Position numbers and translations under genes: made by a program
Source of the DNA: an uncultured Verrucomicrobiae bacterium
GTDB lineage: Bacteria > Verrucomicrobiota > Verrucomicrobiia > Limisphaerales > UBA11358
Assembly: GCA_963842445.1 (NCBI GenBank)
Contig: CAWJHF010000003.1
Location: 143,342 to 207,341 of the forward strand
DNA: 64,000 bases
Direction of reading: 5' to 3'
Notes under the pieces: model-generated
Databases searched by the model: none
Told to the model about the DNA's origin: nothing
The model's input: only the letters and a program-made list of their open reading frames with translations
Shown here: positions 1 through 53,260 of the stretch, piece after piece
Layout: the number at the start of each line of letters is the position of its first letter
Position numbering within the stretch: the stretch's first letter is position 1

Positions 1-1355
1 GCGGCGAACAGATTGGCGCTGCTCATGGAGGCGATGGTATTGTAAAGAGCCAGTGAATTGGCGCTGGTCGCCCCGCCAATGGTCACTACACGGCTGGTGG
101 GAACGGTATTGCTGATGGTCACGCCGGCGTTGCACAGGGTGAAGGTGTTGCCGCTGGCAAAAGTGAATTGGGAATCAATAATTTGGACGCCCTTTACATT
201 GTAAAGGTCGAATGTCTTCGGAGCGGTGTTGGTGATGCAAACGAGCGTGAGATTCGATATGGGCATTTCCGTCGGACCCCAAATGATTCCACCGATGACG
301 GGTGAACTGGCAACGGTCAGGTTGCTGATGGTGATGTCGCGCCAGACGGGAGTGGTGGCGTTGACGGGCGCCGTATTGGAGGCGGCCAGGACTTCAGCGG
401 GCGTAATGTTATCGGGTGTTCCGGTGTCATTGTAATGACTGTAAATGACAATCGGCAGGTTCACATTGGTCATCGTGAGGTTGAAATAATTCAGGTTCTG
501 CACGGGGGCGCTGTTGTCCATATCGCACTTGATGCGAATGCCGTTTTGATTCCCATTGAAAGTGCAGTTGATGACGGTCAGGTTCGATACTCCCACGGAA
601 ATACTGCTGCCGATGGAAACGCCGTGCCCGGAGCCAAAAGTGCAATTGGTGATGAGCAGGTCGTTGAGCGGGCCGCTGGCGCCCATGGCGATGTTGTCGT
701 CGCCGACGCTGATGTGGCAATTCTCAATCACGCAATTGGTGCCCACGAAATCGAGTCCGTCGGTATTGGGCGAGGTCGAAGGCGCTCTCTCTGTGAGATT
801 GCTGATGGTGATGTTGCCGCCGTTATCTCTCACTCCGCAGTGATGATAGGGCGGGTTCTGGAAAGTGATGTCGTGAATGAAAAGACGGTTGCAGGAATAA
901 AGTTGAAGCAACAAGGGGCGGGCCAGACCGCTGTTGGTGGCATAGGCCGCCCACCACGCTGCGCCTTGACCGTCAATCGTGCCTGGTCCGCTGATTTCCA
1001 GGTCATGAACATTATCGCAGTAGATGAACTCGCTGGAACTGCCCGGATAAGTTCCATAGGGCAGCATCTGGAGCATCGCGTTGGTGTCCACCTGCAAATT
1101 GATGCTGCTAAGCAAGGTGATCGGCCCGCTCAAAAACGTGCCCGCAGGAATCTCGACGATGCCGCCGCCCGCCGCATTGGCTGCGTTGATGGCGTTTTGA
1201 ATGCTGGTCGTGTTATCCGTCACCCCGTCGCCGGTGGCACCATAAGCTGTGACATTGAAGATATTGGTCGGAATGGTCGGCATCGCCGGATTGGCGGCGT
1301 GAACCCAACCAGCCAAGGCCAGCCAGGCCCAAATGAAGACAGTTCTTTGTTCCAT
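1..1355 (-). CDS. Glycoside hydrolase family 28 (polygalacturonase-like) secreted protein, 3' end outside window
   Basis: Manual translation from ATG at 1355: MEQRTVFIWAWLALAGWVHAANP..FNVTAYGATGDGVTDNT; GH28 motifs NTDG, GDD, GHG and RIK present; not in ORF track because it runs off the edge. Confidence 0.88.
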   Translation of the reverse strand, partial: MEQRTVFIWAWLALAGWVHAANPAMPTIPTNIFNVTAYGATGDGVTDNTTSIQNAINAANAAGGGIVEIPAGTFLSGPITLLSSINLQVDTNAMLQMLPYGTYPGSSSEFIYCDNVHDLEISGPGTIDGQGAAWWAAYATNSGLARPLLLQLYSCNRLFIHDITFQNPPYHHCGVRDNGGNITISNLTERAPSTSPNTDGLDFVGTNCVIENCHISVGDDNIAMGASGPLNDLLITNCTFGSGHGVSIGSSISVGVSNLTVINCTFNGNQNGIRIKCDMDNSAPVQNLNYFNLTMTNVNLPIVIYSHYNDTGTPDNITPAEVLAASNTAPVNATTPVWRDITISNLTVASSPVIGGIIWGPTEMPISNLTLVCITNTAPKTFDLYNVKGVQIIDSQFTFASGNTFTLCNAGVTISNTVPTSRVVTIGGATSANSLALYNTIASMSSANLFA

Positions 1356-1444
1356 GAACGAAATTAAAAGTTTGAATGGAGCGGTATTGCCTTGACTTCG
1401 TGGACAATGTCAGGTTGTTGATGCTCGCCTTTCAAAAGTTCTCC

Positions 1445-4111
1445 TTACTGCAACACTTGCAGCCGGTAAAACCGCTGCGGGTCCGGCCCCATCAGATTCG
1501 TCACGCTCAACGTGGTATCCGCCGCCGTCAGCGCCCCACCCAAATTGATCCAGTTCGTCTGCAGCAGGTTCGTGTTGTACTGCAACTGATACACCGACCC
1601 CGGCACAGCGTTCCAACTGAACGCCAACTGGTCGCCGCTCGCGCTCAACAGTTGAAATGCCGGCAGCGGAGTGCCCGTCAGGCTCACGTCGTCCAGATCG
1701 AAATATTGCGGGTCATTCCGGGCCCCAAATTGCACCACGCTGCTGCTGCCGGTGGCCTGGACCGCAAATTGCAGGTTGGTCCAGATAAATGCCGGCAGGT
1801 TGGTCTGGTCATAAATGACATTCCCGTTCCAGGACACGCTGAATTCGCTGGGCAATCCGCCATCGGGATTCTCGAGCCAGAACGACAGCATGTAAGGTTC
1901 CCCGGGAATGGTGGGCACCGTTTCAGACAAATAACCCAGCGAACCTTCCGGGCCCAGGCGGGCGGCGTAATTGCCCGAATGGACGAAGGTGGGACTGCCG
2001 CTGACATAGGTGTTGGTGGTATTCCCTGAAAGATTCCAACTCGTGAAATCACCGGTCTCGAAACCGCCGTTCAAAATCAATGGCACCACCTGTAGCGTGG
2101 CTTGGCGGCTCTGGCTGGCACCGGTGTTCAGGTCGTTGAAAAAGATGGTTGCAGCATAGTTCCCCACCGGGAAGCCGGCCGCAGTGGCATTCAAGCTTAC
2201 CGTAACGGTGGTTTGTCCGCCGCCGGCCAGCGTGCCGTTGGTCGTCGAGGCATTGAGCCAGAGCGAGGTGTTGACGAGCGACCAGTTGAGGGAACTTCCG
2301 CCAGTATTGGTCAAGGTGTAATTCTGGGCAATCACGCCAGTCAGTTCTCCCACCGGAAAACCTGCGGCAAAAGCGTTGGCCGGCACGACTTGCAGCGCGT
2401 CGGGTGGCTGGACGAGGGCATTGATCAGGTTGGTTCCGGTCGGAGTGCCCCAACCGGTGCAAAGGTCATAACCGGTGACGGCGAAAAACTTGCTGGGGCT
2501 GTAAAAATTCGTGTTGTTGCCGGCTTTGATGTCATGGAAATCCGAGTTGTAATTCGTCCCCTTGCCGATGGCGTAAACGGCGGGGTTGATAAAACCGACG
2601 GGCGGGTAACCGTTGCCCGCGGCTTGCTGGTTGATCAACGCGGCAAAGCCCGCCCACAATGGGGCCGCGCAACTCGTGCCCCCGACATCCGAATATTGCA
2701 GGCCATTGTCCGCGATCACGAAAACATTGTCGGCGGTCAAGGCGACATCAGGGACATTACGGTGAGTTGTGGATCCCCGGTTCAACGTCATGCTGATGCC
2801 CTGTTGCCATGACGGAATTGAGTAGATGGAGCTTATGCCACCTCCACTGGCATTGCCGTATCCCCAGTTCCAGACCTTTTCAGAAGTCCAGGTTCCGCCC
2901 GCACCGGTTGTCAAAGTTGTTCCCCCGACAAGTGTAACCAAAGGACTGTCTTCATACTGAAAAATCCCAGGATAATATGCCCCCTCGTCACCGGAAGCCT
3001 GCAAAAACGTCTGTCCTTGCATGGCAAACTGTGTGTAAATCGCAGCATATTGCGAGCTGTCGCCGATCACCCAAGAGGAACTGATTTGATCGGCCAGATC
3101 GTCATCGGCAATCTTGCTCAGAATGTCACCATCTATTGCAGGACTGTCACCGGGACCTTCATAGACAATGATTTGGGACAGACTGGGAGCCATGCAATTC
3201 ACCATCTCAATGTCCAGCGCCACCTCAACATTAACGTCGTCGCCCTTGGCAGGCGCCGGCGGACCGCCATCCACCCTCACATTTTGCAGCGGAACGCTGG
3301 GCAGCCCGGCCAGAGCCACGTAATTTGAGATGTCACCGGGAAAGTAGTCAGCACACTCGAAAAGGGCGACGGCCTGCCCCGTCCCCGTAAGTGACACGCC
3401 CGGAGCGTAAGCCTTCCTGAAATCGTACCCAAAGTAAGAGCCAAATCCGTCCGGCGCGGATCCGGTCAACGATTGATTCGTCGAAGATTGACTGCCGGAG
3501 GCCCGGCGGTAAAGCGGGCGTGGCAGAACGTAATTGTTGAGGCCAATGATGCTCGATACCGGCACTGACAGATCCAGCGACGGTTCGACATCCGGCGCAT
3601 AAAACGTCCGGTTTTCCGTCGGGTGCTGATAGACGCGCATCGTTACGTGAAACGTCTTCTGGATCTCCGCCACCGGCCCGTCCACATCCAGCAACACGCG
3701 GTTGGGGTGTGTGCCGGCTATCGTCAAACCGTTCGCCCTCGCAAAAGCGATGACTGCCAGATAATCCTGTTCCGTAGGGCCGAATTGTTCCGTAAACTGC
3801 TGAGGCGTCAGATAGTGATGATAATTGGGGCTGGCCGGGTCGTAAATTTGCTGGAGCAGATTGGTCAACGCCTCCGGGTTGCGCAAGGGGAGACTGATTG
3901 CCAGTCTCAAGCGCTGTGAAGCTGGCAGAACGCTGACCGGTTGCAAATGCAAGCTGGCCACTGCTGCTGGTATGTGGCCTCGCAGTACCTGCCGCCCGGC
4001 CGCCTGGGCAGGTGCGGCGAGCATAGGAAACAGTGGCAGGCACGCGACGGCAGCCAGGCGCCCGATCAAAGACAATCGTCCAGTAGTTTTTGGAAAAAAC
4101 TTCTTGTTCAT
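1445..4111 (-). CDS. S53 (sedolisin/kumamolisin) serine peptidase with prodomain, BACON-like/carbohydrate-binding-like domains and C-terminal FYR domain
   Basis: Signal peptide, pro-kumamolisin activation domain, EVALD, SGD and GGTSCAAP motifs; start taken at MNKKFF. Confidence 0.9.
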   Translation of the reverse strand: MNKKFFPKTTGRLSLIGRLAAVACLPLFPMLAAPAQAAGRQVLRGHIPAAVASLHLQPVSVLPASQRLRLAISLPLRNPEALTNLLQQIYDPASPNYHHYLTPQQFTEQFGPTEQDYLAVIAFARANGLTIAGTHPNRVLLDVDGPVAEIQKTFHVTMRVYQHPTENRTFYAPDVEPSLDLSVPVSSIIGLNNYVLPRPLYRRASGSQSSTNQSLTGSAPDGFGSYFGYDFRKAYAPGVSLTGTGQAVALFECADYFPGDISNYVALAGLPSVPLQNVRVDGGPPAPAKGDDVNVEVALDIEMVNCMAPSLSQIIVYEGPGDSPAIDGDILSKIADDDLADQISSSWVIGDSSQYAAIYTQFAMQGQTFLQASGDEGAYYPGIFQYEDSPLVTLVGGTTLTTGAGGTWTSEKVWNWGYGNASGGGISSIYSIPSWQQGISMTLNRGSTTHRNVPDVALTADNVFVIADNGLQYSDVGGTSCAAPLWAGFAALINQQAAGNGYPPVGFINPAVYAIGKGTNYNSDFHDIKAGNNTNFYSPSKFFAVTGYDLCTGWGTPTGTNLINALVQPPDALQVVPANAFAAGFPVGELTGVIAQNYTLTNTGGSSLNWSLVNTSLWLNASTTNGTLAGGGQTTVTVSLNATAAGFPVGNYAATIFFNDLNTGASQSRQATLQVVPLILNGGFETGDFTSWNLSGNTTNTYVSGSPTFVHSGNYAARLGPEGSLGYLSETVPTIPGEPYMLSFWLENPDGGLPSEFSVSWNGNVIYDQTNLPAFIWTNLQFAVQATGSSSVVQFGARNDPQYFDLDDVSLTGTPLPAFQLLSASGDQLAFSWNAVPGSVYQLQYNTNLLQTNWINLGGALTAADTTLSVTNLMGPDPQRFYRLQVLQ

Positions 4112-4297: not shown

Positions 4298-7200
4298 TCA
4301 GGGCGACACCATGAGGCGATAAAACCGCTGTGGCGAGGATCCGATGGCATTGGTGTCGGATACCGTCAAAGTACCGTTGGTGGCAATGAGTGGCTTGCCA
4401 AGATTAATCCAGTTGGTCTGAAGCAAATTGGTGTTGTATTGCACCTGATAAATTAATCCAGCCATTGTCCCCCAAGTAAGATTGAAGGTGCTGGAAGTTT
4501 GGGTTGTTGCCCGGAACGCCGGCACTGGAACCGGCGTTACGCTAATGTCATCCAGGCCGAGATAGTATGGGGTGTCGTCAAATCCAAACTGGAGAACCGT
4601 GCTGGCGCTGGTGGCCGTGACAATGAATTGCAAATTGGTCCAAGTGGTAAATGGCATGTTGGTCTGGCTGAAGACGGGTGTTCCGTTCCATTGCACGAGA
4701 AATTGATTGGGGGTGGCTCCATGTGAGTTATTAGGATTGTCCAGCCACAGCGAGAGCAAATAGTTCTGTCCGGCAACGGTTGACAAGGTCTGGGAAAGAT
4801 AACCCAGTGAACCAGAAGGACCCAGCGCCGCGCCGTAAGTGCCTGAATGCACGAAATGCGAATTACTAGTAACCACGGTGTCAGCGGTGTTCCCGGATAG
4901 ACTCCAACTGGTAAAAGAGCCGGTCTCAAATCCGCCGTTCTGAACCAGCGGCCCCACCTGCAAAGTGAACGGCAAGCCAACCGTCCAGCCGTTCTGGTTG
5001 GTGAACACCAGGCTGGCCGTGTAAGTTCCCGCCGCCAGACTATAGGCGGCAGAAGTCAAGCTGGCCGTCAACGTGGTCTGTCCTCCGACCGATAATGTTC
5101 CGCTGGTGGGCGAAGCGTTCAGCCAAGTCGCCGGGTTGAGGAGGCTCCAGCTCAAGGAAACCAAGCCCAGGTTGGTCAACACGAAATTTTGCGAAGTAAT
5201 GCTGAATGGTCCACCGAGCAAACCGCCGGAGTTGAAACCGCCTGGTGGCAAAACAGCCAGCGGGGGCAGGACTTGCAGCGTGAACTGACGGGGCTGGGCA
5301 ATGCCGGTTGCCTGATTGGTAAACCAGACGCTGGCGGAGTAGCTGCCCACCGCCAGGCTGTTGGCCGCCGACGTCAGGCTGGCTGTGACGCTGGTTTGCT
5401 GGCCGCCCGCAAGCGTGCCGCTGCCCGGCGAAACGTTGAGCCACGACAAGGTGTTGATCAGGCTCCAGTTCAGCGAGGACACGGTGGAGTTGGTCAGCGT
5501 GAGCGTCTGGGGCGCGCCGCTGAAAGGCCCGCCAATTGGACCGCTTGCCGCGAAACCCGTTAATGGCGTGATGCCCAAGCTGTCAGGCGGAGCGAGCGCG
5601 TTGATCAGATTTTGTCCGTTGGGCGTGCCCAGACCAGTGCAAAGGTCATAACCGTTTGTGGCGTAAAACAGATTGGGGCTGCTAGACCAGGTGTTGTTGC
5701 CGATCGTGATGTCGTTAAAACAATTGGTGTAGTTCGTCCCGGCGGCCAGGCTGTAAATGGCGGGGTTGATGAAGCCCACCGGCGATTTTCCATTGGCCGC
5801 GGCCTGTTGATTGACGAGCGCGTTGAAGCCCGCCCACAACGGCGCCGCAAAACTGGTGCCGCCCCAACCATCCGAACCCTGGCCGTTGCCGCCGTAAACG
5901 ATATACATGTCTTCATAAGCGTTCATGGCCACATCAGGAATATTCCGGTTGGTGGTCGAGCCGCCCCTGCCCGCCATGTTGCTGATGTTGGTCTGCCAGC
6001 CTGGAATGGCATAGTAGGAACTGATTCCGCCACTGCTGCCGGCACCGCCGCCTTGATTCCACACTGTTTCCGACACGTAGGCTGCGACGGCGCCGTTCAT
6101 CGTCAACTGTGTGCCGCCCACCTGCGTGATGTACGGGTTGCTCGACGGCGTATTATCCAACGACGGGTTGTCAACGCCGTTGACAGAACTTGCGCCCGTC
6201 GTAAAAGCGTCGCTGTCACCGGAAGCGTTGAAAAATGACTGCCCGACCGCCTGCATGCTTTTGAAGATGTTGTCTGTCGTTGTGCTTGGTCCGAGGTTCC
6301 AGCCCCAGGAACTGCTCAAGTTTTTCACCGTGTTGCTGAAGGTAAGCATGGAGTTCAAAACGGAGTTGGGCTGGTTACCCTCAAACACCACAATTTTTGC
6401 CAGTCCCGGTGCCATGGCCATCGCCATTTCAATATCCAGGGATACTTCAGCGTTCGCATTTTGAATGCCGCTGTAGCCAGGGATCCCGCTGACCCCGTTT
6501 GTCAAAACAGTTTGTATGACGATGTTCGTCCGCCCGCCGCCCGCCGCCACCGCGTAAGCCACGATGTCATTGGAATAAAAACCGTCCAATTCGAACAAGC
6601 CGACCATCTGGCCCGTGCCCGTCAAAGCCACGTTGGGCGCGTAGGCGTTGCGAAAATCATTGCCGAAATAGTCGCCGGAGCCGTCCGGAGCCGAGCCGCT
6701 TCGGGGCGTGGCCTGAGCCGCAGCCTGCGCTGCGTCAAGGCGGTGGATTTTCGGATGCGGACGGGAAAAGTCGCTCAACCCTTGAATGTCCGCCACCGGC
6801 AACCCCGGATCCACCGACGGTTCCACATCCGGCGCAAAAAAATCGCGCGCCTCCGTCGGATGGCGGTAGGTCCGCAAGGTGATGTGAAACGCCCTTTCGA
6901 TCGCCGATGCCGGGCCGGTCACGTCCAGGACCAAGCGGTTCGCGCTCGTGCCCGCCACGGTCAAACCGTTCCGCTGCGCAAAATCAATGACCGATTGATA
7001 ATCCTGTTCCGTGGGGCCGAACCGTTCCGTGAATTGCTCCAGCGTCAGAAATTTGTGGTAATTCGTGCTGCCCGGATCGTAAAGCTGTTGCAGCAAAGCA
7101 TCGAGCGCCGCCCCGTTCCGCAACGGCAGGCCGATGGCCAGTTGCAGACTTTTTGTCGCCGGCAGTTGACCCGTTGGCTGCAAATTGTAACGCGCAATCG

Positions 7201-7318
7201 CCGGCGGCACGTGTCCGTGCAAAACCTGTCTTTCCCCCGCCATGCCCGGAAAAATTGCACTGAAAAACAACGCGATGGCGATGCCCGTTACATCCAATAA
7301 CGACCGAAATTTCAACAT
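4298..7318 (-). CDS. S53 serine peptidase, tandem paralogue with an extra Ig/BACON-like domain
   Basis: EVSLD, SGD, GGTSFAAP, YDLCTGLGTP; same architecture as neighbour; start uncertain (7318 or 7360). Confidence 0.9.
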   Translation of the reverse strand: MLKFRSLLDVTGIAIALFFSAIFPGMAGERQVLHGHVPPAIARYNLQPTGQLPATKSLQLAIGLPLRNGAALDALLQQLYDPGSTNYHKFLTLEQFTERFGPTEQDYQSVIDFAQRNGLTVAGTSANRLVLDVTGPASAIERAFHITLRTYRHPTEARDFFAPDVEPSVDPGLPVADIQGLSDFSRPHPKIHRLDAAQAAAQATPRSGSAPDGSGDYFGNDFRNAYAPNVALTGTGQMVGLFELDGFYSNDIVAYAVAAGGGRTNIVIQTVLTNGVSGIPGYSGIQNANAEVSLDIEMAMAMAPGLAKIVVFEGNQPNSVLNSMLTFSNTVKNLSSSWGWNLGPSTTTDNIFKSMQAVGQSFFNASGDSDAFTTGASSVNGVDNPSLDNTPSSNPYITQVGGTQLTMNGAVAAYVSETVWNQGGGAGSSGGISSYYAIPGWQTNISNMAGRGGSTTNRNIPDVAMNAYEDMYIVYGGNGQGSDGWGGTSFAAPLWAGFNALVNQQAAANGKSPVGFINPAIYSLAAGTNYTNCFNDITIGNNTWSSSPNLFYATNGYDLCTGLGTPNGQNLINALAPPDSLGITPLTGFAASGPIGGPFSGAPQTLTLTNSTVSSLNWSLINTLSWLNVSPGSGTLAGGQQTSVTASLTSAANSLAVGSYSASVWFTNQATGIAQPRQFTLQVLPPLAVLPPGGFNSGGLLGGPFSITSQNFVLTNLGLVSLSWSLLNPATWLNASPTSGTLSVGGQTTLTASLTSAAYSLAAGTYTASLVFTNQNGWTVGLPFTLQVGPLVQNGGFETGSFTSWSLSGNTADTVVTSNSHFVHSGTYGAALGPSGSLGYLSQTLSTVAGQNYLLSLWLDNPNNSHGATPNQFLVQWNGTPVFSQTNMPFTTWTNLQFIVTATSASTVLQFGFDDTPYYLGLDDISVTPVPVPAFRATTQTSSTFNLTWGTMAGLIYQVQYNTNLLQTNWINLGKPLIATNGTLTVSDTNAIGSSPQRFYRLMVSP

Positions 7319-7538
7319 AAGGCGCAGTTTTGAATAATGGCAATCCGTAACGGCCGACATCCGCCGGGCACAGTCTTTGTTTTAATTCGCACAGGCTGTT
7401 AAAAAGCAAACCGCGTTCCACATTTAAGCGGAAACAATGTATATTTGTAGCGCAATTTATGCTCAGATGACACATAAATCAAATCCGGTATTATCGAAAA
7501 AAATTGCCCGGCTCCGTCCGTGACTTTAACGTGCGTTT

Positions 7539-8321
7539 GTGGCCGCCAAACTTACCATTCTCGGCAGCGGTTCCGGCGGGAATTGCGCCTATGTTGAAAC
7601 CGCTGAGGCGCGGATACTTGTGGATGCCGGGTTCAGCCCGCGGCAGATCCGCCAGCGCCTTGGGGCGATCGGCCGCGTGCCGGAGAATCTCACCGCCATT
7701 CTCATCACCCACGAACACACCGATCATATCCAGGGACTCACCGGCATCGCGCAAAAACTCAACATCCCCATCTACTGCAACCGCGCCACCAAAGATGAAT
7801 TTGAACGCATCCTCGAAACCCGCTTCGACTGCCGGCTCTTCGACACCGGCGCGAGCTTTGAAATCGCCGACGTGCTGGTGGACACCTTCACCATCCCGCA
7901 TGACGCCCAGGACCCTGTCGGTTTTCTGCTCCGCACCGCCGCCGGCAACATCGGGTTCGCCACCGACCTCGGCCACATGACCAAGCTGGTAATCGAACGC
8001 ACGCGCGCCGCGAATGTCCTCGTCCTCGAATCCAACCACGACGTGAAGATGCTTCAGGATTGCCCGCGCCGCTCGTGGAGTCTCAAGCAGCGCATTCTTG
8101 GCCGCCACGGCCATCTCTCGAACGAAGCCGCTGCCGAAGCCGTCGCGAAAATCATGTCTGCCGAACTGCGCCACCTCTACCTTGCCCACCTCAGTCGCGA
8201 ATGCAACCGCCCTGAACTCGCCCATTACGTCATGGCTGAACAGCTCCACCACATCGGTGCTACTCATGTTCAACTTCAACTCGCCGCGCAAGATGTGCCG
8301 TGCAAGACTTTGGAGCTTTGA
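7539..8321 (+). CDS. MBL-fold metallo-hydrolase (YycJ/WalJ-like)
   Basis: GSGSGGN, THEHTDH, HDA, ESNHD, GHLSN, AHLS motifs. Confidence 0.88.
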   Translation: MAAKLTILGSGSGGNCAYVETAEARILVDAGFSPRQIRQRLGAIGRVPENLTAILITHEHTDHIQGLTGIAQKLNIPIYCNRATKDEFERILETRFDCRLFDTGASFEIADVLVDTFTIPHDAQDPVGFLLRTAAGNIGFATDLGHMTKLVIERTRAANVLVLESNHDVKMLQDCPRRSWSLKQRILGRHGHLSNEAAAEAVAKIMSAELRHLYLAHLSRECNRPELAHYVMAEQLHHIGATHVQLQLAAQDVPCKTLEL

Positions 8322-8388
8322 GATTCCAATCTGGAATCTTGAAGAATGGCTTGAACATTAAATAACTGCGTGCGTTTTAGCGAATAAA

Positions 8389-8469
8389 ATGGCTGAATTG
8401 AACATTCAAAAAATCTCCTCGTTCGATTCACCTGAACTCCAAGCTTACGCCACGATGCAGCTTGCCTGA
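8389..8469 (+). pseudogene. Orphan 5' copy of the trmH-family gene (26-codon mini-ORF)
   Basis: MAELNIQKISSFDSPELQAYATMQLA* aligns with the start of 9036-9902 (MLRIQKISSFNSPELQPYATMKR). Confidence 0.85.
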
Positions 8470-8490
8470 AAAATCAAACCGGCGTATCGT
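8462..8490 (+). promoter_or_regulatory. Putative sigma70 promoter for a leaderless TA transcript
   Basis: TTGCCT-17nt-TATCGT, ATG 6 nt after the -10 box, no SD. Confidence 0.55.
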
Positions 8491-8496
8491 TTTGGC

Positions 8497-8709
8497 ATGC
8501 GAAAAGAACGCGTCTATCACTGCGATCCGGAAATCCTTGGGGGCACGCTGGTCTTCAAGGGCACGCGCGTGCCGGTGCAAAGTCTTTTCGACCATCTCAA
8601 GGCGGGCGATTCCATCGAGGATTTTTTGGAAGGTTTCCCCAGTGTGAAGCGTTCGCAGGTGCTGGCCGTACTCCGGGAAATGGAAATGGAAGTTCTCGCC
8701 CACGCCTGA
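8497..8709 (+). CDS. DUF433 family antitoxin (VapB45-like)
   Basis: DPEILGGTLVFKGTRVPV..L..G.S.E.FLE.FPS signature. Confidence 0.9.
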   Translation: MRKERVYHCDPEILGGTLVFKGTRVPVQSLFDHLKAGDSIEDFLEGFPSVKRSQVLAVLREMEMEVLAHA

Positions 8710-8710
8710 T

Positions 8711-9031
8711 GTGAGAATTCTTCTGGATGAAAACCTGGATTGGCGGTTGGGGCACTTTCTTCCCGGGCACGAGGTCAAATCCGTCCCGCGCCTCGGTTGG
8801 GCAGGATTGAAAAATGGGATACTTCTTCGCCGGGCGAATGAAAGTTTCGACGTGCTTATTACCATGGACAACCCTATGGTCAGTCAACAGAATCTGTCGA
8901 AACTCAAGATCGCCGTAGTCGTCTTGCGTGCACCGTCGAATCGCCTGGCAGATACCAGCCCGCTCATGCGGCAAGTTCTTGCGCTGCTGCCACGTTTAAA
9001 GCTAGGAAAAGTAGCGAGGGTGGCGGCTTGA
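8711..9031 (+). CDS. DUF5615 PIN-like toxin (VapC45-like)
   Basis: MRILLDENL..GWAGLKNG.LL..FDVLITMD; directly follows DUF433. Confidence 0.88.
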   Translation: MRILLDENLDWRLGHFLPGHEVKSVPRLGWAGLKNGILLRRANESFDVLITMDNPMVSQQNLSKLKIAVVVLRAPSNRLADTSPLMRQVLALLPRLKLGKVARVAA

Positions 9032-9035
9032 GTTC

Positions 9036-9902
9036 ATGCTACGCATCCAAAAAATCTCCTCTTTCAATTCGCCCGAACTCCAGCCTTACGCCACGATGAA
9101 GCGGCCGCTGGAGCAGGAACGGCAGGGTATCTTCGTAGCCGAAGGGGTAAAAGTCGTGCGGCGGCTGCTCGAAAGCCATTTCACCGTTACTTCGGTCGTG
9201 CTGCCGGAAAAATGGCTGGACGATTTCCGTCCGCGGATTGAAGCGCGCCCGGAACCCATCACGGTTTATCTCGCCGAAAAGAAATTTCTGGAAGGGCTGG
9301 TCGGCTTTTCTATGTTCCAGGGGGTCCTCGCCGTCGGGAAAATTCCGCCACCCGTTTCGCTCGACGAACTCCTGCAAAAAAGTCCCCAGCCGCGGCTCCT
9401 GGTCGCCGTGGACGCATTAACCAACGCCGAAAATCTTGGCGCCCTCGTCCGGAATTGCGTCGCCTTTGGCGTTCAGGCGTTGCTCGTAGGCGAAACTTCC
9501 AGCAGCCCGTTCCTGCGCCGCGCCGTCCGCAATTCCATGGGCACCATTTTTCAATTGCCGGTCATCGAACTGGCGAAACTCGGCCAACGGCATCAGTTCA
9601 CCACCAAACCGCATACCACGAACCTGACGCTCGCGGAATGTTTGAAGGAGCTTCGCGTCCGTGGTGTCCGCTGTATCGCGGCGCATCCGCACACGGACAA
9701 GAAGGTCTTGTCCCAGGCGGATTTTTCCGGCGATTGTTGCATTGTCTTTGGCAGCGAAGGCGACGGGCTTTCTGTACCGGTGCGGGAAGCGTGCGATGAA
9801 GCGGTGGCCATTCCGATGCCGCCGGCGGTGGATTCACTCAACGTCGGCGCGGCGGCGGCGGTTTTTCTTTATGAGGCGAACCGGCAGCGAAAACATTCCT
9901 AA
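9036..9902 (+). CDS. TrmH/SpoU family RNA 2'-O-methyltransferase
   Basis: F.AEG, NLGALVR, FGSEGDG, IPM...VDSLNV SPOUT motifs. Confidence 0.92.
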   Translation: MLRIQKISSFNSPELQPYATMKRPLEQERQGIFVAEGVKVVRRLLESHFTVTSVVLPEKWLDDFRPRIEARPEPITVYLAEKKFLEGLVGFSMFQGVLAVGKIPPPVSLDELLQKSPQPRLLVAVDALTNAENLGALVRNCVAFGVQALLVGETSSSPFLRRAVRNSMGTIFQLPVIELAKLGQRHQFTTKPHTTNLTLAECLKELRVRGVRCIAAHPHTDKKVLSQADFSGDCCIVFGSEGDGLSVPVREACDEAVAIPMPPAVDSLNVGAAAAVFLYEANRQRKHS

Positions 9903-9965
9903 ATTGCTGGACAAATTGGATTTGTCGCCAAGACTGCCTTTGGTTCCTTCACAAGAACAAATCGT

Positions 9966-10208
9966 ATGAACCAAAATCAATTGGCGAATGTTCTCATCAA
10001 GATTCTCGGCCTGTATTTTTGCGTGGATGGGTTCGTGCGCATAGTTTCCGGGGTGCTTAATTTGCTTGCCATGCTGACGAGCCGAAACGGCTTCGGGTCA
10101 TTCTACGCCTGGGTCAGTCCATTTATCGGGTTGATCCTGGCTGCCATTGGCTTTCTCTTAATCGTGTTAAGCCGGGCGATTGCCGACATTTTGTTCAAGA
10201 ACGAATGA
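9966..10208 (+). CDS. Small membrane protein (2 predicted TM)
   Basis: 80-aa ORF with two hydrophobic segments filling the trmH-glnE gap. Confidence 0.6.
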   Translation: MNQNQLANVLIKILGLYFCVDGFVRIVSGVLNLLAMLTSRNGFGSFYAWVSPFIGLILAAIGFLLIVLSRAIADILFKNE

Positions 10209-10229
10209 TTGATGGAAGCCGTTCCAAAA

Positions 10230-13200
10230 TCAAAACGGAAACACCTTCGCATAAACCTCTCTGATTGCTCTGCGCCATTTGGCCAGCGCCTTTCTGAATT
10301 TATCCGGCGTCGCAAAACCGCAGCGCACCGAGACGCGGTAATATGCCGGCGCATCGTCCGGCAAAACTGTTTCGCCTTCGTAACTCCATCGTCGCAGGAT
10401 GCCTTCGACGCGGCGCAATCGCCGGTAATTCTTAATCAGCTTGTCCCAATCGGCACGTGTGAGCAGTTGGAGTTTACGCTTCGGCGTGCCTTTGGCCGAA
10501 ACACAATCTGAAGATTGAACTCCAATCACATTCCGACCGCGTTCGAGCGCCCGAAGCGTGTTGGCCTCCTGCCAGCCGTGTTCCAGGCACAGCGCCTGTG
10601 CGATAAATTCCGCGTCCATGAAACCGCCCCTGCCGGTTTTAATGGCCAGATCATCCTGACCGCGCGGCGTCCGTTCTTTCTCGATGCGCATCCGCATTTG
10701 GTGGATTTGTTCCTTCCAGTCCAGTGTGAAACAAGCTGGTAATGCAGGACAGGCGTCCTGCCTGTCTCTCTTTTCTCTTTTCCGTTGAGATGGAGACAGG
10801 CGGGACGCCTGTCCTACGTTGGAAAAATCCGTCAACGCCGCCGCTAATTTCTGAAACTGTTCGCCCAATTTCATATCGCCCGCCACCGGACGTGTGCGGG
10901 TGAGCGCTTGGATTTCCCAAAGCTGCGCGCGTTTGCGATAGTATTCTTCGTAGGCCGCCAGCGTATTGACGAGCAGGCCCTTTTCGCCGTCCGGCCGCAG
11001 GCGCGCGTCGGTCTGAAACACCGTCCCCTGCTCCGTCCGACGCGACAGCAAGTCCATCACTTCCACGGCCAGCCGCTGAAATTTCGCCAGCCCCCTCGTT
11101 TTCGCGCCCGCGACAAACACGATGTCGAGGTCGGAGCCGTAATCAATTTCGCAACCGGCCAGTTTGCCGAGACCAATGATGCTGAATGGCGGCGTTTTAA
11201 TTTTATTTTTACGCATCACAACCTCGACCGCATATCGCAAGCAGGCGTCGGCCAGCGCGGAAAGCTCTTCCAGATTCTGCTCGAAATCGGCGAGCCCGAG
11301 GATGTCGCGCAGCCCGAGCCGCATCAACTCGGCCTCGTGATAACGGCGCAGCCAGAGAAACTGGTCTTCGTCGGCGAGGCCATAGCGCAGGTCCTTCAAA
11401 ATTTCCGGCGCGGTTTTGTGCTGGCGCAGGCGGCCACTGTTCACCAAGTCGTCAATCAAATCCGGCGTGTGAATGGCGACCTCAGCCAGAAATTCGGAGC
11501 GATCGAACAACAGCAGCAGCAGCTCAAACGCCGGCGGATTGCTGTTCCACATTTCAAACAACGCGGTGCGCGTGCCGTAAGCCTCAATGAAACTTTCCAA
11601 ACGTGTCAGCACCCGGTCGGGGTCGGAAAGGATTTGCGACCTGGGGACCGTACCCGTATTCGCTGCGTTTCGCCGCATGTTTCGGGCAAAGGGCCAGAAA
11701 TTTCAAAATCAGTTGCCGCACCAGTTCCGTGGTATGCGGTGAGACGTGAACATAACCCGGCCCTTCCGCAAATTCTTTCAACAACCGGACCGCCGACTCC
11801 GGCTCGCGAAACGAATGCGCCGCCAGCAAATCCTTCCATTTCGCCTCCGCGCCATCGAATTCTTCCGGCAGGATTGCCTCCGCCGGTTTTGCCGTTTCCG
11901 CCTTCAGGAGCTGGTCGTAAACCCGGCGCACGTTGCCGGTGTGCGTTTTCAGCGCCGCTTCAAATTCGTCCAAAGACTTGAAGCCCATCAACCTTGCCAG
12001 TCGCAGCCGGGCCGGGTGGTCTTCGGGAATGGTGTGGGTTTGCTGATTTTCCTCCATTTGCAGGCGGTGCTCGACGTCGCGGAGAAAACGGTAGGCGGCA
12101 TCGAGTTGCTGCGCGTCCTCTTCCGCGAGCAATTTATATTGCGCGAGCTTGGCGAGGCACGGAAGCGTTTGCGCGGTTTGCAGAAACGGCAGCCGTCCGG
12201 CGTGCAGGATTTGCAGCGACTGGACGACGAATTCAATTTCGCGAATGCCACCGCGCCCCAACTTGACGTTGCGCTCCAATTCTTCCGCACGCACAACTTC
12301 CCGCTCAATCCGGTCCTTGACCGCGGCAACTTCGCGGAGCACGTCGGCACTCAGCGAAGGCGGGAACCGGAAGGACTGAATCATTTCGAGAAACTCGGCG
12401 GCCAGGCCTTCATCGCCGGCCACACATCGCGCCTTGATGAGTATCATGCGCTCCCACGTCTGGCCCCATTGCGCGTAATAATTTTCGTAACTCTCGAGCG
12501 AACGCGCCAGCGGTCCGGCATCGCCCTCTGGCCGTAACCGCAAGTCAATGCGGAACAAAAAGCCTTCCGCCGTCACCCGCGAAACCTCGGCGGCAAACGC
12601 CTCGGCGAGTTTGTTGAAAAACTGGTGACTGGACAGCGTCGAACGCGGCGCCTTCCCCGGGGTGGGCGGTTCCTTGAAGACCTGTCCTTCATCGTTGTAA
12701 AGAAACAGCACGTCCACGTCGGAACTGTAATTGAGTTCCTGTCCGCCGAGTTTGCCCATGCCGAGCACGCAAAATTCCGTCGGCTGCCAGTTGCCTTCGG
12801 CGTCCTGGTGATAGGGCCGGCCGAACTTTTCAAAAAACTGTTGCCGGCAAATGCGCCAGACGGCATTGAGGCAGACATCCGCCACATCGGAGATTTCCCT
12901 GGTGATTTCGACGACGTTGCCGAGGCGTGCGAGATCGCGCGCGGCAATACGGAGCATTTCGCGTTGCTTGAAGCGGCGCAGTTCCGTGAGCGCGCCGGTG
13001 TAATCGCGCGCGGCAAGTTTTGGCTTCAACCAGCCTTCGACCTCGCGCTGAAATCCCTGCGCCCGGCGCGGATACTTAAGCCGCCCGGCTTCAAGCATCG
13101 AAAGCCAGCCGGGATTGGCGACAAGCAACCCGCCAAGCGCCCGCGAGCCGCTGAACAAGGCAACGAGAATGCGAGCTTGTTCGTCCGACATTTTCTGCAA

Positions 13201-15464: not shown

Positions 15465-16634
15465 TCAAATCCCCCGATTGGCACGCCAGAGCAGCACCGC
15501 GCCGACAGCTTGAAAAATAAAATTTGGCAGCCAGAGAATCAGGTGCGGTACAAATTCAGGCCGGGCGGACAGCGCTTCCCCCAGCATGATGAAAGTGTAA
15601 TAAACCAGCACCAGCATCAGCGCGATGGCGACACCGACATTGGTCTCGCGCCGATGCACGCGAATGCCGAGCGGAATCCCGACGAGCGTGAACCCGAAGC
15701 ACGCGAACGAAAACGCGATTTGCCGGTTCATTTCCACGAGGACCGGCTCGGTCAAATCGCTCCGCTGTTTTTCCGCTTCGCGAAGTTGCGCGCGCAATTC
15801 GTCTGAAGAAGCCTCCACCATAACCGGCAGTGAACCCAATTTTTCCTCCAAATCATGCAGCACCTCGCGCAACTGCCAGAAAGTCATGTCACTGATCTTG
15901 GGTTTGTAAGTCTGGTTCGTCGCCACGTTGAGGTCGAAATTCAAGGTCAGCTCGGGAGACGAACCGATGCTGATGCGCGCTCCGCTGAAAGTGACCGTCC
16001 GCGCGTCGAACAAATGCAGAATGAGTTGCTTGTTTGGCAGGTCCGTCTCGAACCGGCCGCGCGGGGCGCGCAAGGTTGTTTCCGCGTTGGTCTCGTTCCC
16101 GTATTTCAGGATCCGCACGTCCTCCAGATTCCCGTCGTGGTTTTTCGCCGCGTAAAAAATATAACCCGGAAAATCGTTGATGACCTTGCCTTCGGGCAAT
16201 TGCGCCCTGTCCAGATCGGAAAGAAACCGGCTTTTCAGGTTGATGTAGGCGACCCGAGACCAGGGGCCGAGGTCCATGTTGAACCACGCGCTGACACCGC
16301 AGCAAAACAGGCTGAACAACAACACGGGTAAAATAAGCGAGAACAGACTGATGCCGCTCGCGCGGGCCGCGGTCAATTCCTGATCGGCGCTAAATCTCCC
16401 GAACACCAGCAAGGCCGCGGTGATAAATCCCATGGGCAAGGCATAAACGCACGCAAAGGGAATCAGCAGTCCGACGGCCTTCAAGACCAGCCACAAGCTC
16501 ACCTGCCCTTTGACCAGCAAAGGAAGAATTTCATGAAGCACGTTGAAGAGCAGCACCACAAAAGTGAAAACCGTCACCGTCATCAGCAACGAGACGAGGA
16601 TTTCGTGGACCAGGTATTTGTGCAGTATTTTCAC
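15465..16634 (-). CDS. LptF/LptG family LPS export permease
   Basis: 3 TM + periplasmic domain + 3 TM; RFSADQELTAARASGIS, WLPN motifs; GTG start. Confidence 0.88.
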   Translation of the reverse strand: MKILHKYLVHEILVSLLMTVTVFTFVVLLFNVLHEILPLLVKGQVSLWLVLKAVGLLIPFACVYALPMGFITAALLVFGRFSADQELTAARASGISLFSLILPVLLFSLFCCGVSAWFNMDLGPWSRVAYINLKSRFLSDLDRAQLPEGKVINDFPGYIFYAAKNHDGNLEDVRILKYGNETNAETTLRAPRGRFETDLPNKQLILHLFDARTVTFSGARISIGSSPELTLNFDLNVATNQTYKPKISDMTFWQLREVLHDLEEKLGSLPVMVEASSDELRAQLREAEKQRSDLTEPVLVEMNRQIAFSFACFGFTLVGIPLGIRVHRRETNVGVAIALMLVLVYYTFIMLGEALSARPEFVPHLILWLPNFIFQAVGAVLLWRANRGI

Positions 16635-16749
16635 GATGTCGGACGTGCAAAGCGAAAATGCCTGATTCTGCACGCCAATCAAGCGCAACTTCGCATGGAT
16701 AAACTCGGAGCCGAATTGCCGGCGGCGGGGAAAGAATGGGGAACTCGGG

Positions 16750-17322
16750 TCACCAATCTTTGACGGGCTGGTTCTGATTTTCTGGTTTTCCCCGCGGCTT
16801 CAATTGCAGGACCTGTTCGCTGCCTTTTTGCGCGTCCAACAAGCGCTTCGCCTCTTCCGGCGTCATCTGCCCCGCGGCCACCGGCTGGCCCTGTTCATTT
16901 TGATTTTCCTGCTTTTCGCCAGATTTTTGTTCTTGCTGCCCGGCGTTTTTCTGGCCGGATTGGTTCTGTTCGTTCTGCTTTTGCTGCTGTGAATTCTGTT
17001 GGGACGGCTGTTGCTTCTGTTGTTGCTGCTTTTGCCGGCTGTTTGATTTCTGCTGCTGCGATTGATTCTGCTGGTTTTGTTGCGATTGATTGTTTTGCGA
17101 TTGTTGCTGGCTCTGTTGTTTTAACAGCTCATACAACTTTTTCAGTTTCACATCATCGGGATAACGTTTCAGCCCCTCTTCCACCGGCGCCAAGGCTTGG
17201 GGAATGTTGTTGGAAATGTAGAAATGCGCGCCGCTGTTGAAAAAATCATCGGCGGTTTGCGCGCAGGCTGCCTGCCATGCCATCAGCAGGCTAACGCTGA
17301 TTGGGAGCGACAATCGCATCAA
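16750..17322 (-). CDS. Q-rich BatC-tail-like exported protein
   Basis: Signal peptide, long Q/N tract, MTPEEAKRLLDA, C-terminal KDW. Confidence 0.75.
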   Translation of the reverse strand: MMRLSLPISVSLLMAWQAACAQTADDFFNSGAHFYISNNIPQALAPVEEGLKRYPDDVKLKKLYELLKQQSQQQSQNNQSQQNQQNQSQQQKSNSRQKQQQQKQQPSQQNSQQQKQNEQNQSGQKNAGQQEQKSGEKQENQNEQGQPVAAGQMTPEEAKRLLDAQKGSEQVLQLKPRGKPENQNQPVKDW

Positions 17323-20637: not shown

Positions 20638-21615
20638 TCATCCGCGCAATCTCCGCTTTTCCCGGTTCTCAAAAAACCTTCCCAATGCCGCCGAGTAAGC
20701 TTCACCCGTGTGGAGTTGAATGGTGTCAATGCCGGAAGACCGGAATTGCCGCGCCAGATCCTCATTCTGCTTTCGCTGGCGCAATGCAAATGCGTCGCGG
20801 CTGCCCGCGTCGCCGGTGTTGAGCTCCAAGATTTCGCCGGTCTCGGCATCCTCCAGGATCAAACGCCCAAGGGCCGGCAATTCGAGTTCATAGCGATCCG
20901 TGATTTGCACGGCCACGACGTCGTGGCGGCGATTGGCCATGCGCAAGGCGGTTTGAACCGCTTGCGGCAATACGCCGGTTTTGGACTGCGCGGGTGTGTC
21001 CGCGCTTTGTTTCAACGCGACCTGTCGCGTGGTTGAAATCGGGGACGCGTCACCGCACTCCAAAAAATCCGAAATGACGACCGCGATGGCCTTGTGCGGC
21101 AAAACGCGGCCCATGAATTCCAGCGCGTGGACCAAATCCGTTCCGCGCCGTTTCGGCTCGGAGAAAAGCACTTCGCGAATCACCCGCAACACGTGACCGC
21201 GGCCCTTGCGCGGCGGGATGAACTTTTCCACCTCGTCCGTGAACAGGAGCAGGCCGACCTTGTCGTTGTTGCGGATGGCGGAGAAGGCGAGCACGGAGGC
21301 GATCTCGGCGGCGAGTTCGCGTTTGGACTGGTCGCGCGAGCCGAATAGTCCCGATCCGCTCACGTCCACGACCAGCATCACCGTCAATTCGCGTTCCTCG
21401 ACGAATTTTTTAATGAACGGATGGTTCATACGCGCGGTGACGTTCCAGTCAATGGTGCGCACGTCGTCGCCGGGCTGGTATTCGCGCACCTCGTCGAAAT
21501 TCATCCCCTGCCCTTTGAAGACGGAATGGTACTGGCCCGCGAGCGTCTCGGTCACGAGCCGGTTCGTGCGCAACTCGATCTGCCGGATTTTTTTGAGAAT
21601 CTCGCGGGGAATCAT
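20638..21615 (-). CDS. DUF58 protein (MoxR-associated)
   Basis: FKGQGMNFDEVREYQPGDDVRTIDWNVTAR, EERE, DVSGS, ISDF. Confidence 0.92.
   Translation of the reverse strand: MIPREILKKIRQIELRTNRLVTETLAGQYHSVFKGQGMNFDEVREYQPGDDVRTIDWNVTARMNHPFIKKFVEERELTVMLVVDVSGSGLFGSRDQSKRELAAEIASVLAFSAIRNNDKVGLLLFTDEVEKFIPPRKGRGHVLRVIREVLFSEPKRRGTDLVHALEFMGRVLPHKAIAVVISDFLECGDASPISTTRQVALKQSADTPAQSKTGVLPQAVQTALRMANRRHDVVAVQITDRYELELPALGRLILEDAETGEILELNTGDAGSRDAFALRQRKQNEDLARQFRSSGIDTIQLHTGEAYSAALGRFFENREKRRLRG
20979..21065. repeat. Palindromic element in frame in the DUF58 gene
   Basis: TTTTGGACTGCG...CGCACTCCAAAA; adds ECGDASP..SADTPAQSK after ISDF. Confidence 0.7.
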
Positions 21616-21696: not shown

Positions 21697-21924
21697 ATGA
21701 GTGCGACGGAAATTCTTGAAGAACTGCGTCGGATGCCGGAAGTGGAACGACGTGAACTCGTTGAAACCATTGAATTGGAATTTGGCGATTTCGACGATAA
21801 ACTCACACTGGAGCAAAAAACCGAACTCGATCGCCGTGCGGAAGAATTTCGCAAAAACCCGCGCGATGGAATTCCATTTGAACAAGTCCGCGAAGAGGCC
21901 CGCAAACGCTTCGGTTGGAAATGA
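21697..21924 (+). CDS. Addiction-module antitoxin (TIGR02574-like)
   Basis: L..ERRELVE.I...LT.EQK.ELDRR..E...NP..GIP.EQV signature. Confidence 0.88.
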   Translation: MSATEILEELRRMPEVERRELVETIELEFGDFDDKLTLEQKTELDRRAEEFRKNPRDGIPFEQVREEARKRFGWK

Positions 21925-22217
21925 AGCGGGTGTGGCTCAAATCGCCCGCCGACTTGGATTACCTTCAAGCGTTGGAATGGTATGAAGAACGGCGGCCAGG
22001 CTTGGGGCAGGAATTCGACGCCGAACTTCTGGCGCTGTTCGAGCGCATCAAACAAAACCCTGAACTTTTCCAGAAAGAAACCGCTGTTGTTTGCAAGGCG
22101 CGGATGCCGCATTTCAAATACCGGATTTACTTCACGGTTGAGGGTGATGAAATCGGTGTGCTTGCCATCTGGCATCCCAGCCGGAATCCCGAAGCGCTGC
22201 GCCGCCGGCTGAAATGA
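21921..22217 (+). CDS. RelE/ParE family toxin
   Basis: A.LD..A..WYEERRPGLGQEF, F.Y.IYF, VLAIWH.SR.P; ATGA overlap with antitoxin. Confidence 0.88.
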   Translation: MKRVWLKSPADLDYLQALEWYEERRPGLGQEFDAELLALFERIKQNPELFQKETAVVCKARMPHFKYRIYFTVEGDEIGVLAIWHPSRNPEALRRRLK

Positions 22218-22220: not shown

Positions 22221-22301
22221 GCCCGCGAGCGTTTCGGTCACGATGCGGTTCGTACGAATCTCGATCTGCCGGATTTTTTTGAGAATCTCGCGGGGGATCA
22301 T
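22221..22301 (-). pseudogene. Orphan 5' copy (27 codons) of the DUF58 gene; frame stays open to 21612
   Basis: MIPREILKKIRQIEIRTNRIVTETLAG vs MIPREILKKIRQIELRTNRLVTETLAG at 21535-21615. Confidence 0.9.
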
Positions 22302-50154: not shown

Positions 50155-50271
50155 GCGCTGGAGCCAACGCCGACTGCCCCTTGAGTTTATGGATGGTTTG
50201 AGTTATACAACGATTATTGAGCTTGCGGAGCCACTTGCCCGTCGGCGTGGCTCAGCTTTGGATCGTTAGGC
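50155..50271 (+). repeat. attC-B, large half, inverted (R'' end at 52735-52748)
   Basis: GCGCTGGAGCCAACGCCGAC...GGCTCAGCTTTGGATCGTTAGGC, 127-bp family in the opposite orientation. Confidence 0.88.
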
Positions 50272-50315
50272 ATCATTTTGTCACAAACATAAATAACAAT
50301 AAATGGAGATTAAAT

Positions 50316-50721: not shown

Positions 50722-50741
50722 CGACTGGCGCATATTTTGTA

Positions 50742-51053: not shown

Positions 51054-51061
51054 CACCGCGC

Positions 51062-52734: not shown

Positions 52735-52742
52735 GCGCGGTG

Positions 52743-53257: not shown

Positions 53258-53260
53258 CAC

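Follow-up and report, generated by a model that had tools for sequence, protein, structure and literature searches.

How can a small gene pair come to lie between a housekeeping gene and a second copy of that gene's own start, with no transposase or integrase beside it? The question is raised by the trmH locus in a 64,000-nt stretch (the window) of contig C3 of an uncultured Verrucomicrobiae bacterium of the order Limisphaerales, known from a metagenome-assembled genome (MAG; G000, 3.77 Mb, 93.7% complete). Here a 26-codon open reading frame (ORF) resembling the beginning of trmH is followed by a candidate toxin-antitoxin (TA) pair with DUF433 and DUF5615 domains, and then by full-length trmH. 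In this locus the original 5' end of trmH has been left stranded as the mini-ORF, and trmH is now read from a replacement start behind a 36-nt motif and the TA pair, that is, the locus is a case of gene-start replacement. Little is documented on how small accessory genes, TA pairs among them, arrive at chromosomal sites and spread without a transposase or integrase, and it is this genomic setting, rather than the TA pair itself, that makes the locus of interest.

The mini-ORF (MAELNIQKISSFDSPELQAYATMQLA*, positions 8389-8469, forward strand) is a relic of codons 1-23 of an earlier trmH start and matches an nhmmer profile of trmH starts with an E-value of 4.3e-11. The working trmH gene (9036-9902, forward strand; SpoU-family RNA methyltransferase, Pfam SpoU_methylase 1.3e-31), which starts MLRIQKISSFNSPELQPYATMKR, is open and full length, and orthologues were found in 38 of 41 genomes searched. 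Its first 22 codons form the downstream copy (9044-9102) of a 59-nt direct repeat, whose upstream copy lies at 8403-8461 on the same strand; 51 of the 59 positions are identical (86%), the spacing is 641 nt, and a local blastn-short comparison of the two starts gives E = 1e-11. Five of the eight mismatches are in third codon positions, three in first and none in second. Such a bias would be expected of two alleles, each of them functional up to the event, though the numbers are small. The preliminary description of this DNA, made from the sequence alone, had recognized the mini-ORF, the DUF433-DUF5615 pair and the restart of trmH just as they were found here; its statement that the two copies differ "largely" at synonymous sites holds for five of the eight mismatches, but with three in first positions it is weak evidence when taken alone.

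The similarity between the copies stops at 8461, one base 5' of the hexamer TTGCCT (8462-8467), which agrees with the earlier remark that it ends just before the -35 box of the TA pair. From this point extends the shared cassette motif CTTGCCTGAAAAATCAAACCGGCGTATCGTTTTGGC (36 nt, 8461-8496, forward strand), arranged as TTGCCT, 17 nt, TATCGT, 6 nt and then ATG, and the TGA stop codon of the mini-ORF falls within it. By its spacing and conservation the motif has the form of a leaderless-type promoter, which is its predicted function; a promoter and terminator scan passed it over (by our own count it has 8 of 12 matches) and reported no terminator. Behind the motif are the DUF433 antitoxin candidate (8497-8709, forward strand; PF04255, 8.9e-18, 64.3 bits with a cut-off of 23.6) and the DUF5615 PIN-like toxin candidate (8711-9031, forward strand; PF18480, 2.5e-8, 34.2 bits with a cut-off of 23.8). 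The two genes are small and co-oriented, with the antitoxin first and one base between them, and by domain content and gene order they make an ordinary VapBC-like type II TA candidate. The DUF433 gene is the only one in G000, and four nucleotides separate the toxin stop from the trmH ATG.

Nothing in the unit points to an enzyme of its own. No inverted repeat of at least 13 nt was found within the cassette and no terminal inverted repeats, no recombinase or transposase ORF was found in 4298-11678 using the ORF list and Pfam, and a permissive Rfam search of 7400-10300 gave no match. The reported lack of transposase, integrase and terminal inverted repeats is thus borne out for the unit, and for ORFs also in its surroundings, while tyrosine recombinases lie farther off in the window, the PF00589 match nearest to the cassette being at about 29125-29622 and a further tyrosine-recombinase gene at 59122-59751. 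Contigs from sequencing run X1, possibly the source sample, span both cassette junctions with no difference. The relative G160 has the same build as G000, which is therefore no assembly artefact of the G000 MAG alone.

To follow the unit in relatives, we used the motif pattern TTGCCTGAAAAANNAAACNNNCGTAT; the genomes compared are MAGs or contigs, and the counts of relics depend on the loci fetched. The pattern was found in 8 of 163 genomes of the genus, in nine species-representative stretches (seven from the genus and two unrelated chance matches) and in 28 metagenome contigs, one of them unrelated. The genuine motif loci from genus genomes and metagenome contigs number 35 and carry three kinds of cargo. 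The G000-type DUF433/DUF5615 pair (TA-A) stands behind the motif in 11 of them, and a second DUF433/DUF5615 pair (TA-B), with 48%/35% amino acid identity to TA-A, in two; the TA-B toxin of G019 scores 21.3 bits for DUF5615, under the cut-off. An ORF6N-domain gene (185-190 aa, Pfam 1.5e-30) is the cargo of the remaining 22 loci, of which one is truncated at a contig end. In 21 of the 35 loci trmH comes immediately after the cargo; six are cut by contig ends and eight have other neighbors. Where ORF6N cargo precedes trmH, its stop codon overlaps the trmH ATG.

A trmH-start relic directly 5' of the motif was identified at six loci, namely in G000, G019, L052, L055, L056 and G160, the last having a variant motif that the search pattern misses. 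The relics end with (A/T)TGCGCC in G019 (TA-B), L055 (TA-A with the toxin deleted), L052 and L056 (both ORF6N), or with ATGCAGC in G000 and G160, and in five of the six this end is followed by TTGCCTGA. All six are intact ORFs of 24-26 codons ending ...LA*. The relic-to-motif junction is common to at least five lineages with three kinds of cargo. The nhmmer profile of trmH starts gave strong second copies only in the relic-bearing loci, and a recognizable relic is absent from most motif loci. As for TA-A, DUF433 copies with 86-94% amino acid identity are present in 12 other genomes of the genus (81% in G095), and the pair adjoins trmH in at least six other genus genomes.

The region upstream of the relic shows that the locus is layered. 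Its left neighbor, the gene of a metallo-beta-lactamase-fold (MBL) protein (7539-8321, forward strand; Pfam Lactamase_B_2, 6.8e-25), is conserved and precedes trmH in several relatives as well. Ahead of the relic lies a remnant of an ORF6N-domain gene, ALRFQSGILKNGLNIK (8315-8362, forward strand; 13 of 16 residues identical in a tblastn search with the ORF6N protein of G164). It is all that G000 retains of the gene, with a deletion on either side. G160, at 85.6% identity to G000 over 1494 nt, has the same relic, junction and TA pair, but with the ORF6N gene intact (88% amino acid identity): the order is a segment called context X, motif 1, ORF6N, relic (MAELNIQK...), motif 2, TA-A and trmH. 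Since context X and the motif are followed directly by TA-A in G100, G112 and L068, G160 looks like this arrangement with an extra ORF6N-relic-motif unit. Related orders include that of G095, with ORF6N, a short relic, the motif and DUF433, and that of G004, which lacks the relic and the TA pair, yet has the same junction of the MBL stop to ORF6N codon ~68 as G000 (78 nt, 83%). Thus what the preliminary description took for a single insertion is a stack of ORF6N remnant, relic, TA pair and trmH.

The comparison of the MBL-trmH locus across relatives, which that description had proposed as a check, yielded both empty and filled alleles, as well as different cargo at the same junction. The MBL gene adjoins trmH without a TA pair in at least six relative loci. 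In L055, where the cassette toxin is lost, the relic begins 4 nt past the MBL stop, which looks like an entry into a compact naive site. Mosaic flanks were observed as well: between G160 and G145 the TA pair is 95-97% identical and the motif 72%, while the sequence upstream of the motif differs, and both G095 and G145 have variant relic/motif junctions. Overall, the interval contains nothing, ORF6N, TA-A, TA-B, a lipoprotein gene, a 261-aa ORF with PagL, or a 332-aa ORF. It behaves as a gene-gain hot spot, with the same flanks, alternative cargo and no mobility genes of its own, as in hot spots of the minimal mobile element type. Unrelated extra genes are also seen between MBL and trmH in L032 (G009; 1085-3002), L052 (397-1395) and L056 (264-1023), where they comprise the family-less 261-aa ORF, a PagL lipid A deacylase gene on the opposite strand, the 332-aa ORF and two AT-rich ORFs of about 150 aa.

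The TA pair is not a newcomer. Over 28 pairs of loci, toxin nucleotide identity tracks that of trmH (for instance, 85% and 81-83%, 97% and 90-91%, 77% and 67-72%), with the antitoxin more conserved than the toxin (81-100%). As the toxin has diverged about as much as trmH, TA-A has long resided beside trmH. Further, since G160 shares the relic, junction and TA pair, the insertion predates the split of G000 and G160; the repeat is therefore not a fresh target-site duplication, as had already been supposed.

The relics themselves behave in several ways. In G019 and L055 the nearest neighbor of the relic is the working trmH start of the same genome (0.91 and 0.94, respectively). The L056 relic is nearest to the trmH start of the cassette-free G002 (0.94), its own trmH lying beyond the contig end, and the relics of G000 and G160 are each other's nearest neighbors (0.89). 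One codon encodes Q in both start copies of G000 and R in both copies of G160, and this co-variation hints at gene conversion. The G160 relic is altered at otherwise conserved residues (PEL to PDL, T to M), which indicates decay, and decayed or truncated relics occur in G145, G095 and G084.

The explanation we favor, with a probability of about one half, is a founding illegitimate join, followed by spread, stacking, swapping and pruning of the unit by homologous recombination with no cassette-encoded enzyme. A single illegitimate join would have connected codon 23 of trmH with the left edge of a cassette headed by the motif and already lying directly 5' of another trmH allele, either by one-sided homologous plus illegitimate recombination or by an equivalent single crossover with a circular copy. 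From then on host homologous recombination would suffice, with no dedicated enzyme. Homology arms could be provided by the gene-start repeat (66 nt), the motif (36 nt), the highly conserved antitoxin gene and trmH, and exchange between them could move the unit into a naive trmH, stack a second cassette, swap cargo, delete cassettes, or overwrite the relic with the local trmH sequence. G000 would once have carried a stack of ORF6N cassette, relic, TA cassette and trmH, in which two later deletions eroded ORF6N. Type II TA pairs generally work against the loss of DNA carrying them; the pair would disfavor loss of the repeat-flanked unit and probably protects it. The evidence for this explanation comprises the shared junction, the stacks, the naive-site entry in L055, the empty and filled alleles, the mosaic flanks, the long residence of the TA pair, the relics that resemble the local trmH start, the recurrence of the build at other genes and the lack of a mobility gene in the unit. 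Tandem duplication of the whole motif-cargo-start unit was considered as a general origin and rejected, first by L055, where a relic 4 nt after MBL leaves no room for a first unit, and second by the two units of G160, which have different cargo.

Several observations weigh against this explanation. No recombination intermediates or polymorphism at the cassette were seen in the low-depth contigs. The founding join is itself a reconstruction; at the relic-motif junction the microhomology, as deduced from relic-less loci, is at most "CC". The hints of gene conversion come from one co-varying codon and the nearest-neighbor patterns. The L052 relic is nearest to the relic of G019 (0.83) and unlike the trmH behind it, with which no repeat was found, so that a distant donor is needed. 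G000 has 25 Phage_integrase (PF00589) matches in its 3.77 Mb, which makes a recombinase acting in trans possible. Finally, the proposed mechanism does not itself predict that the downstream copy should begin within 0-6 nt of the start codon, as it does in five or six of the seven G000 cases described below; the sole explanation offered is that in compact donor operons the cargo abutted the ATG. A comparison of G000 trmH with those of G004, G160, G145 and G074 in 120-nt windows showed no visible recombination breakpoint.

The trmH locus is not the only one of its kind. A scan of G000 for short direct repeats with one copy at the start of a long ORF (repeats of up to 130-140 nt, with targets and cargo assigned by Pfam) identified seven start duplications, that is, trmH and six more. 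The closest parallel is a DUF58 gene (20638-21615, reverse strand; Pfam DUF58, 8.2e-80), in which the first 27 codons (21535-21615) belong to an 81-nt repeat, as its working copy; the repeat begins exactly at the ATG and runs to codon 27, with 74 of 81 positions identical. The relic MIPREILKKIRQIEIRTNRIVTETLAG (22221-22301, reverse strand) is 3 nt from the stop of the ParE toxin gene (21921-22217), which together with an Unstab_antitox antitoxin gene (21697-21924) forms the cargo (Pfam 1.8e-7 and 2.9e-8, respectively), both on the forward strand and so opposite to DUF58. Four tandem GTGATGC units occupy the spacer beside the working DUF58 ATG. Close homologs of the ParE cassette (81-94% amino acid identity) stand at a DUF58 start in six of six loci, and the relic end is identical to that of G000 in G158, G114, G064 and G005. 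As separate observations, locus L112 of G080 (1-2333) has four DUF58-start copies, with a 414-nt unit repeated at 96% around the ParE cassette, and locus L114 of G005 has three.

Similarly, on contig C1 (locus at 16485-17233) the start of a pseudouridine synthase gene is duplicated from -5 to +70 around a PemK/MazF toxin gene (Pfam 7.9e-13) and a 76-aa upstream ORF, and its relic junction lies directly before TTGCGT, 17 nt, TATTTT, 7 nt and ATG. Start duplication with TA cargo, which the preliminary description had expected at other loci, is thereby found twice more in G000, with ParE at DUF58 and MazF at the pseudouridine synthase gene. The remaining targets are the LpxB gene (cargo, a 150-aa ORF of no family; repeat to codon 20), an alpha/beta-hydrolase gene (a PAP2/DUF3471 protein; -1 to +67), a zinc alcohol dehydrogenase gene (a 104-aa ORF; -1 to +36) and uvrB (an MFS transporter on the opposite strand; -20 to +39). 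The 150-aa ORF was at one time taken for a transposase associated with repetitive extragenic palindromes, an assignment that was dropped as it has no Pfam family at E 1e-3. Repeats are 59-66 nt long for trmH and 37-81 nt in the other cases, and they end at codons 12, 13, 20, 22, 23 and 27, at unrelated sequences. The downstream copy begins at -1 to +8 from the start codon in five of the seven G000 cases, at -5 in one and at -20 in one. Third positions account for five of seven mismatches at DUF58, three of four at the alcohol dehydrogenase gene and one of ten at the C8 locus.

Outside G000, TA-A is found in G085, G144 and G088 behind the start of a ferredoxin-reductase-like gene that is duplicated over 49-97 nt, upstream sequence included; in G061 and G087 the pair adjoins other genes without start duplication. 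MazF-type cassettes as a group (20 loci) were not counted as start-duplication cases, since several of their repeats look like a repeated element rather than a duplication of the target; four of the 20 loci are at the pseudouridine synthase gene, and nine have flanking direct repeats of at least 50 nt. A mirror case was noted on contig C7 of G000 (100501-101865), where the last ~48 codons of an M16 peptidase gene occur twice around a 336-aa ORF with no Pfam family, and the two copies cease to match at most a few bases from the stop codons.

A broader reading of these cases can be put forward tentatively: these Limisphaerales might possess a general mechanism for assembling cassette arrays at the 5' (sometimes 3') ends of housekeeping genes, with no cassette enzyme, the gene start acting as a portable attachment site and host recombination stacking, swapping and spreading the units. 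In such arrays each captured unit may end with a copy of the first 12-27 codons of its target, from the start codon, and TA pairs may be favored as deletion-resistant cargo. The anchoring at the start codon may reflect joining within a strand that the homologous anchor displaces, or copying that sets out from where a leaderless transcript begins, and could point to a specific repair or recombination step.

Among the explanations that compete with a founding join and subsequent homologous recombination, the one that survives best, though we consider it unlikely, is a strict mini-circle, in which a small autonomous circle of motif, TA pair and trmH start enters and leaves by a Campbell-type single crossover and is itself the unit of spread. 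Such a crossover yields exactly the observed product, the relic-motif junction stays constant across hosts and cargo, the G160 stack is what a crossover in the motif would give, and L055 resembles entry into a naive site. Yet linear donor DNA that recombines through the relic on its left and trmH on its right leads to an identical product with no circle involved, no means by which a 640-bp circle could replicate or be transferred is known, and the co-divergence of TA-A with trmH makes any moves rare at best. Neither a circle junction nor the joint left by going back was seen in the contigs examined, which was a weak search: runs X1, X2, X3 and X5 gave short low-depth contigs with no joints, circle or empty site. 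The preliminary description had proposed Campbell-type entry of a small unit that rebuilt the gene. The displaced start and the gene restored from a second copy are as it said and the model is compatible with them, but its circle was not seen in the fragmentary contigs, and one-sided homologous plus illegitimate recombination with later homologous exchange explains the data at least as well.

Less probable still is a host tyrosine recombinase, for example of the integron type, that acts in trans and recognizes trmH codons 21-23 and the left edge of the motif. The identical junction in at least five lineages with three cargo kinds would suit it, and candidate enzymes exist, given the 25 Phage_integrase matches in the genome and the integron-like array with attC-like repeats in the window (see below). 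Site-specific insertion, however, does not duplicate 37-81 nt of its target; the start duplications at other genes end at different codons and unrelated sequences, their cargo lies in either orientation, the cassette has no attC-like inverted repeat, and G095 and G145 have variant junctions.

We give as little credence to duplicative insertion in situ, anchored at the transcript start, whereby a break in the first ~25 codons would be repaired by copying the 5' end of the gene from its start onward, which in leaderless genes is where transcription begins, and by joining captured DNA between the copies, as a separate event in each case. This would account for downstream copies that begin near the start codon, for repeat ends varying from codon 12 to 27 and for unrelated cargo in either orientation, and the predicted cassette promoters have leaderless-promoter spacing. 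On the other hand, Ku was not found in G000 (93.7% complete), the copies in several cases differ mostly at third positions, like alleles of two genomes, the relic junction is inherited within each gene family rather than made anew, and the gene-end duplication of the M16 peptidase is left unexplained.

A very improbable alternative is that selection keeps the mini-ORF as a translated leader peptide or upstream ORF regulating the TA pair or trmH. All six relics are indeed intact and open from a start codon to a stop that falls in the motif, and where they depart from the working copy they do so preferentially at third positions; but the G160 relic is changed at otherwise conserved residues, the relics of G145, G095 and G084 are decayed or truncated, and most motif loci have no recognizable one. 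A full tandem duplication of trmH with a decayed upstream copy, named in the preliminary description as the finding that would speak against start replacement, can practically be dismissed, as only the repeat itself favors it, every relic ends at codon 23 directly at the motif, the L055 relic lies 4 nt after MBL with the cassette immediately behind, and nhmmer over all loci gave only start-sized second copies and no longer upstream trmH fragment.

The locus shows a concrete route for gene gain, in which cargo travels with a copy of the start of the neighboring essential gene. As the cargo carries this copy, the gene survives the insertion, and the relic, motif and gene become homology arms for transfer, stacking and cargo exchange. 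If the route is general, a short ORF matching the N-terminus of the gene downstream would be a simple signature of recombination-borne gene gain; it would account for TA pairs found immediately 5' of housekeeping genes and offer a testable alternative to integron-type cassette systems.

Some other features of the window and genome were noted. On the reverse strand, 4298-7360 encodes a secreted protein of 1020 aa that combines a pro-kumamolisin activation domain with BACON_2 and carbohydrate-binding domains; a paralogous sequence is found farther on in the contig (repeats C3:145747-150424). Two identical RVT_1 ORFs are located at the starts of contigs C13 and C20. The attC sites of integrons are imperfect inverted repeats with RYYYAAC/GTTRRRY cores. 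The region 50156-57548 of the window contains arrays of 100-128-nt direct repeats at a spacing of 450-2800 nt, of which the copies at 53735-53834 and 55155-55254 begin with GCCTAAC and end with GTTAGGC, resembling attC, and the gene at 59122-59751 belongs to the Phage_integrase family (2.7e-37); by these features the array and recombinase look like a chromosomal integron. A similar array and recombinase are present on contig C1 (385401-393647 and 395079-395708).

How does the unit compare with known systems? At the level of titles and abstracts, no report of TA pairs, or of any other cargo, lying between two copies of a gene start was encountered in the literature. The TA pair as such has relatives among the PIN-COG2442 (DUF433) VapBC-like type II pairs, for instance vapBC10 of Synechocystis (PMC3834315, PMC2701414). 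As there, a DUF433 antitoxin gene is followed by a PIN-like toxin gene, both small and adjacent; unlike there, the toxin candidate matches DUF5615 rather than the classic PIN family, and the present pair is known from its sequence. The setting of the pair does not belong to the integrase-borne, integron or transposon class, because the features that define these were tested for and not found. With no terminal inverted repeats, no transposase and a repeat of no fixed length, the unit is no insertion sequence, transposon or miniature inverted-repeat transposable element.

Integrative elements that replace the 5' end of their target, such as SXT/R391 at prfC and the dusA-specific islands, measure tens of kilobases and have their own tyrosine integrase and a short crossover core. 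Like them, the unit brings a substitute gene start, a direct repeat of the target start flanks the insert, and the gene is restored. Unlike them, it measures 640 bp, its repeats of 59-81 nt differ like alleles, and no recombinase is part of it, no element-encoded tyrosine integrase being found in either 8389-9035 or 4298-11678. Chromosomal integron arrays with TA cassettes resemble the present loci in having small units, often TA pairs, arrayed between repeats (up to four DUF58 starts in G080), where the TA pairs may stabilize the array. Here, however, the place of attC is taken by coding sequence, namely the beginning of the housekeeping gene downstream, and no intI or attI is adjacent, the recombinase of the integron-like array being ~50 kb from the cassette. 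An origin as an integron cassette was rejected, given the lack of an attC-like inverted repeat and the mere 4 nt between the toxin stop and the trmH ATG.

Two further systems move DNA by host recombination. One is that of the minimal mobile elements, or recombination hot spots between conserved flanking genes, of Neisseria, a subject of PMC3787668. In these elements different cargo can occupy the interval between conserved flanks (here MBL and trmH); homologous recombination moves it, and it has no mobility genes. At trmH, unlike in Neisseria, one flank is partly duplicated and provides an internal repeat, and the cassettes share a promoter-like motif and are stackable.

Homology-facilitated illegitimate recombination operates in natural transformation, in Acinetobacter and Streptococcus pneumoniae. 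As is proposed here, it brings in DNA beside a homologous anchor and joins the other end at little or no homology, with no enzyme of the element. Its products have a homologous junction on one side and an illegitimate one, with 0-10 nt of microhomology, on the other, and their anchor-side copy is a foreign allele. At the trmH locus, by contrast, the illegitimate join would fall within the anchor copy of the recipient, so that the gene start is kept twice, and the product behaves as a unit that can be used again, its junction recurring in several lineages and in stacks.

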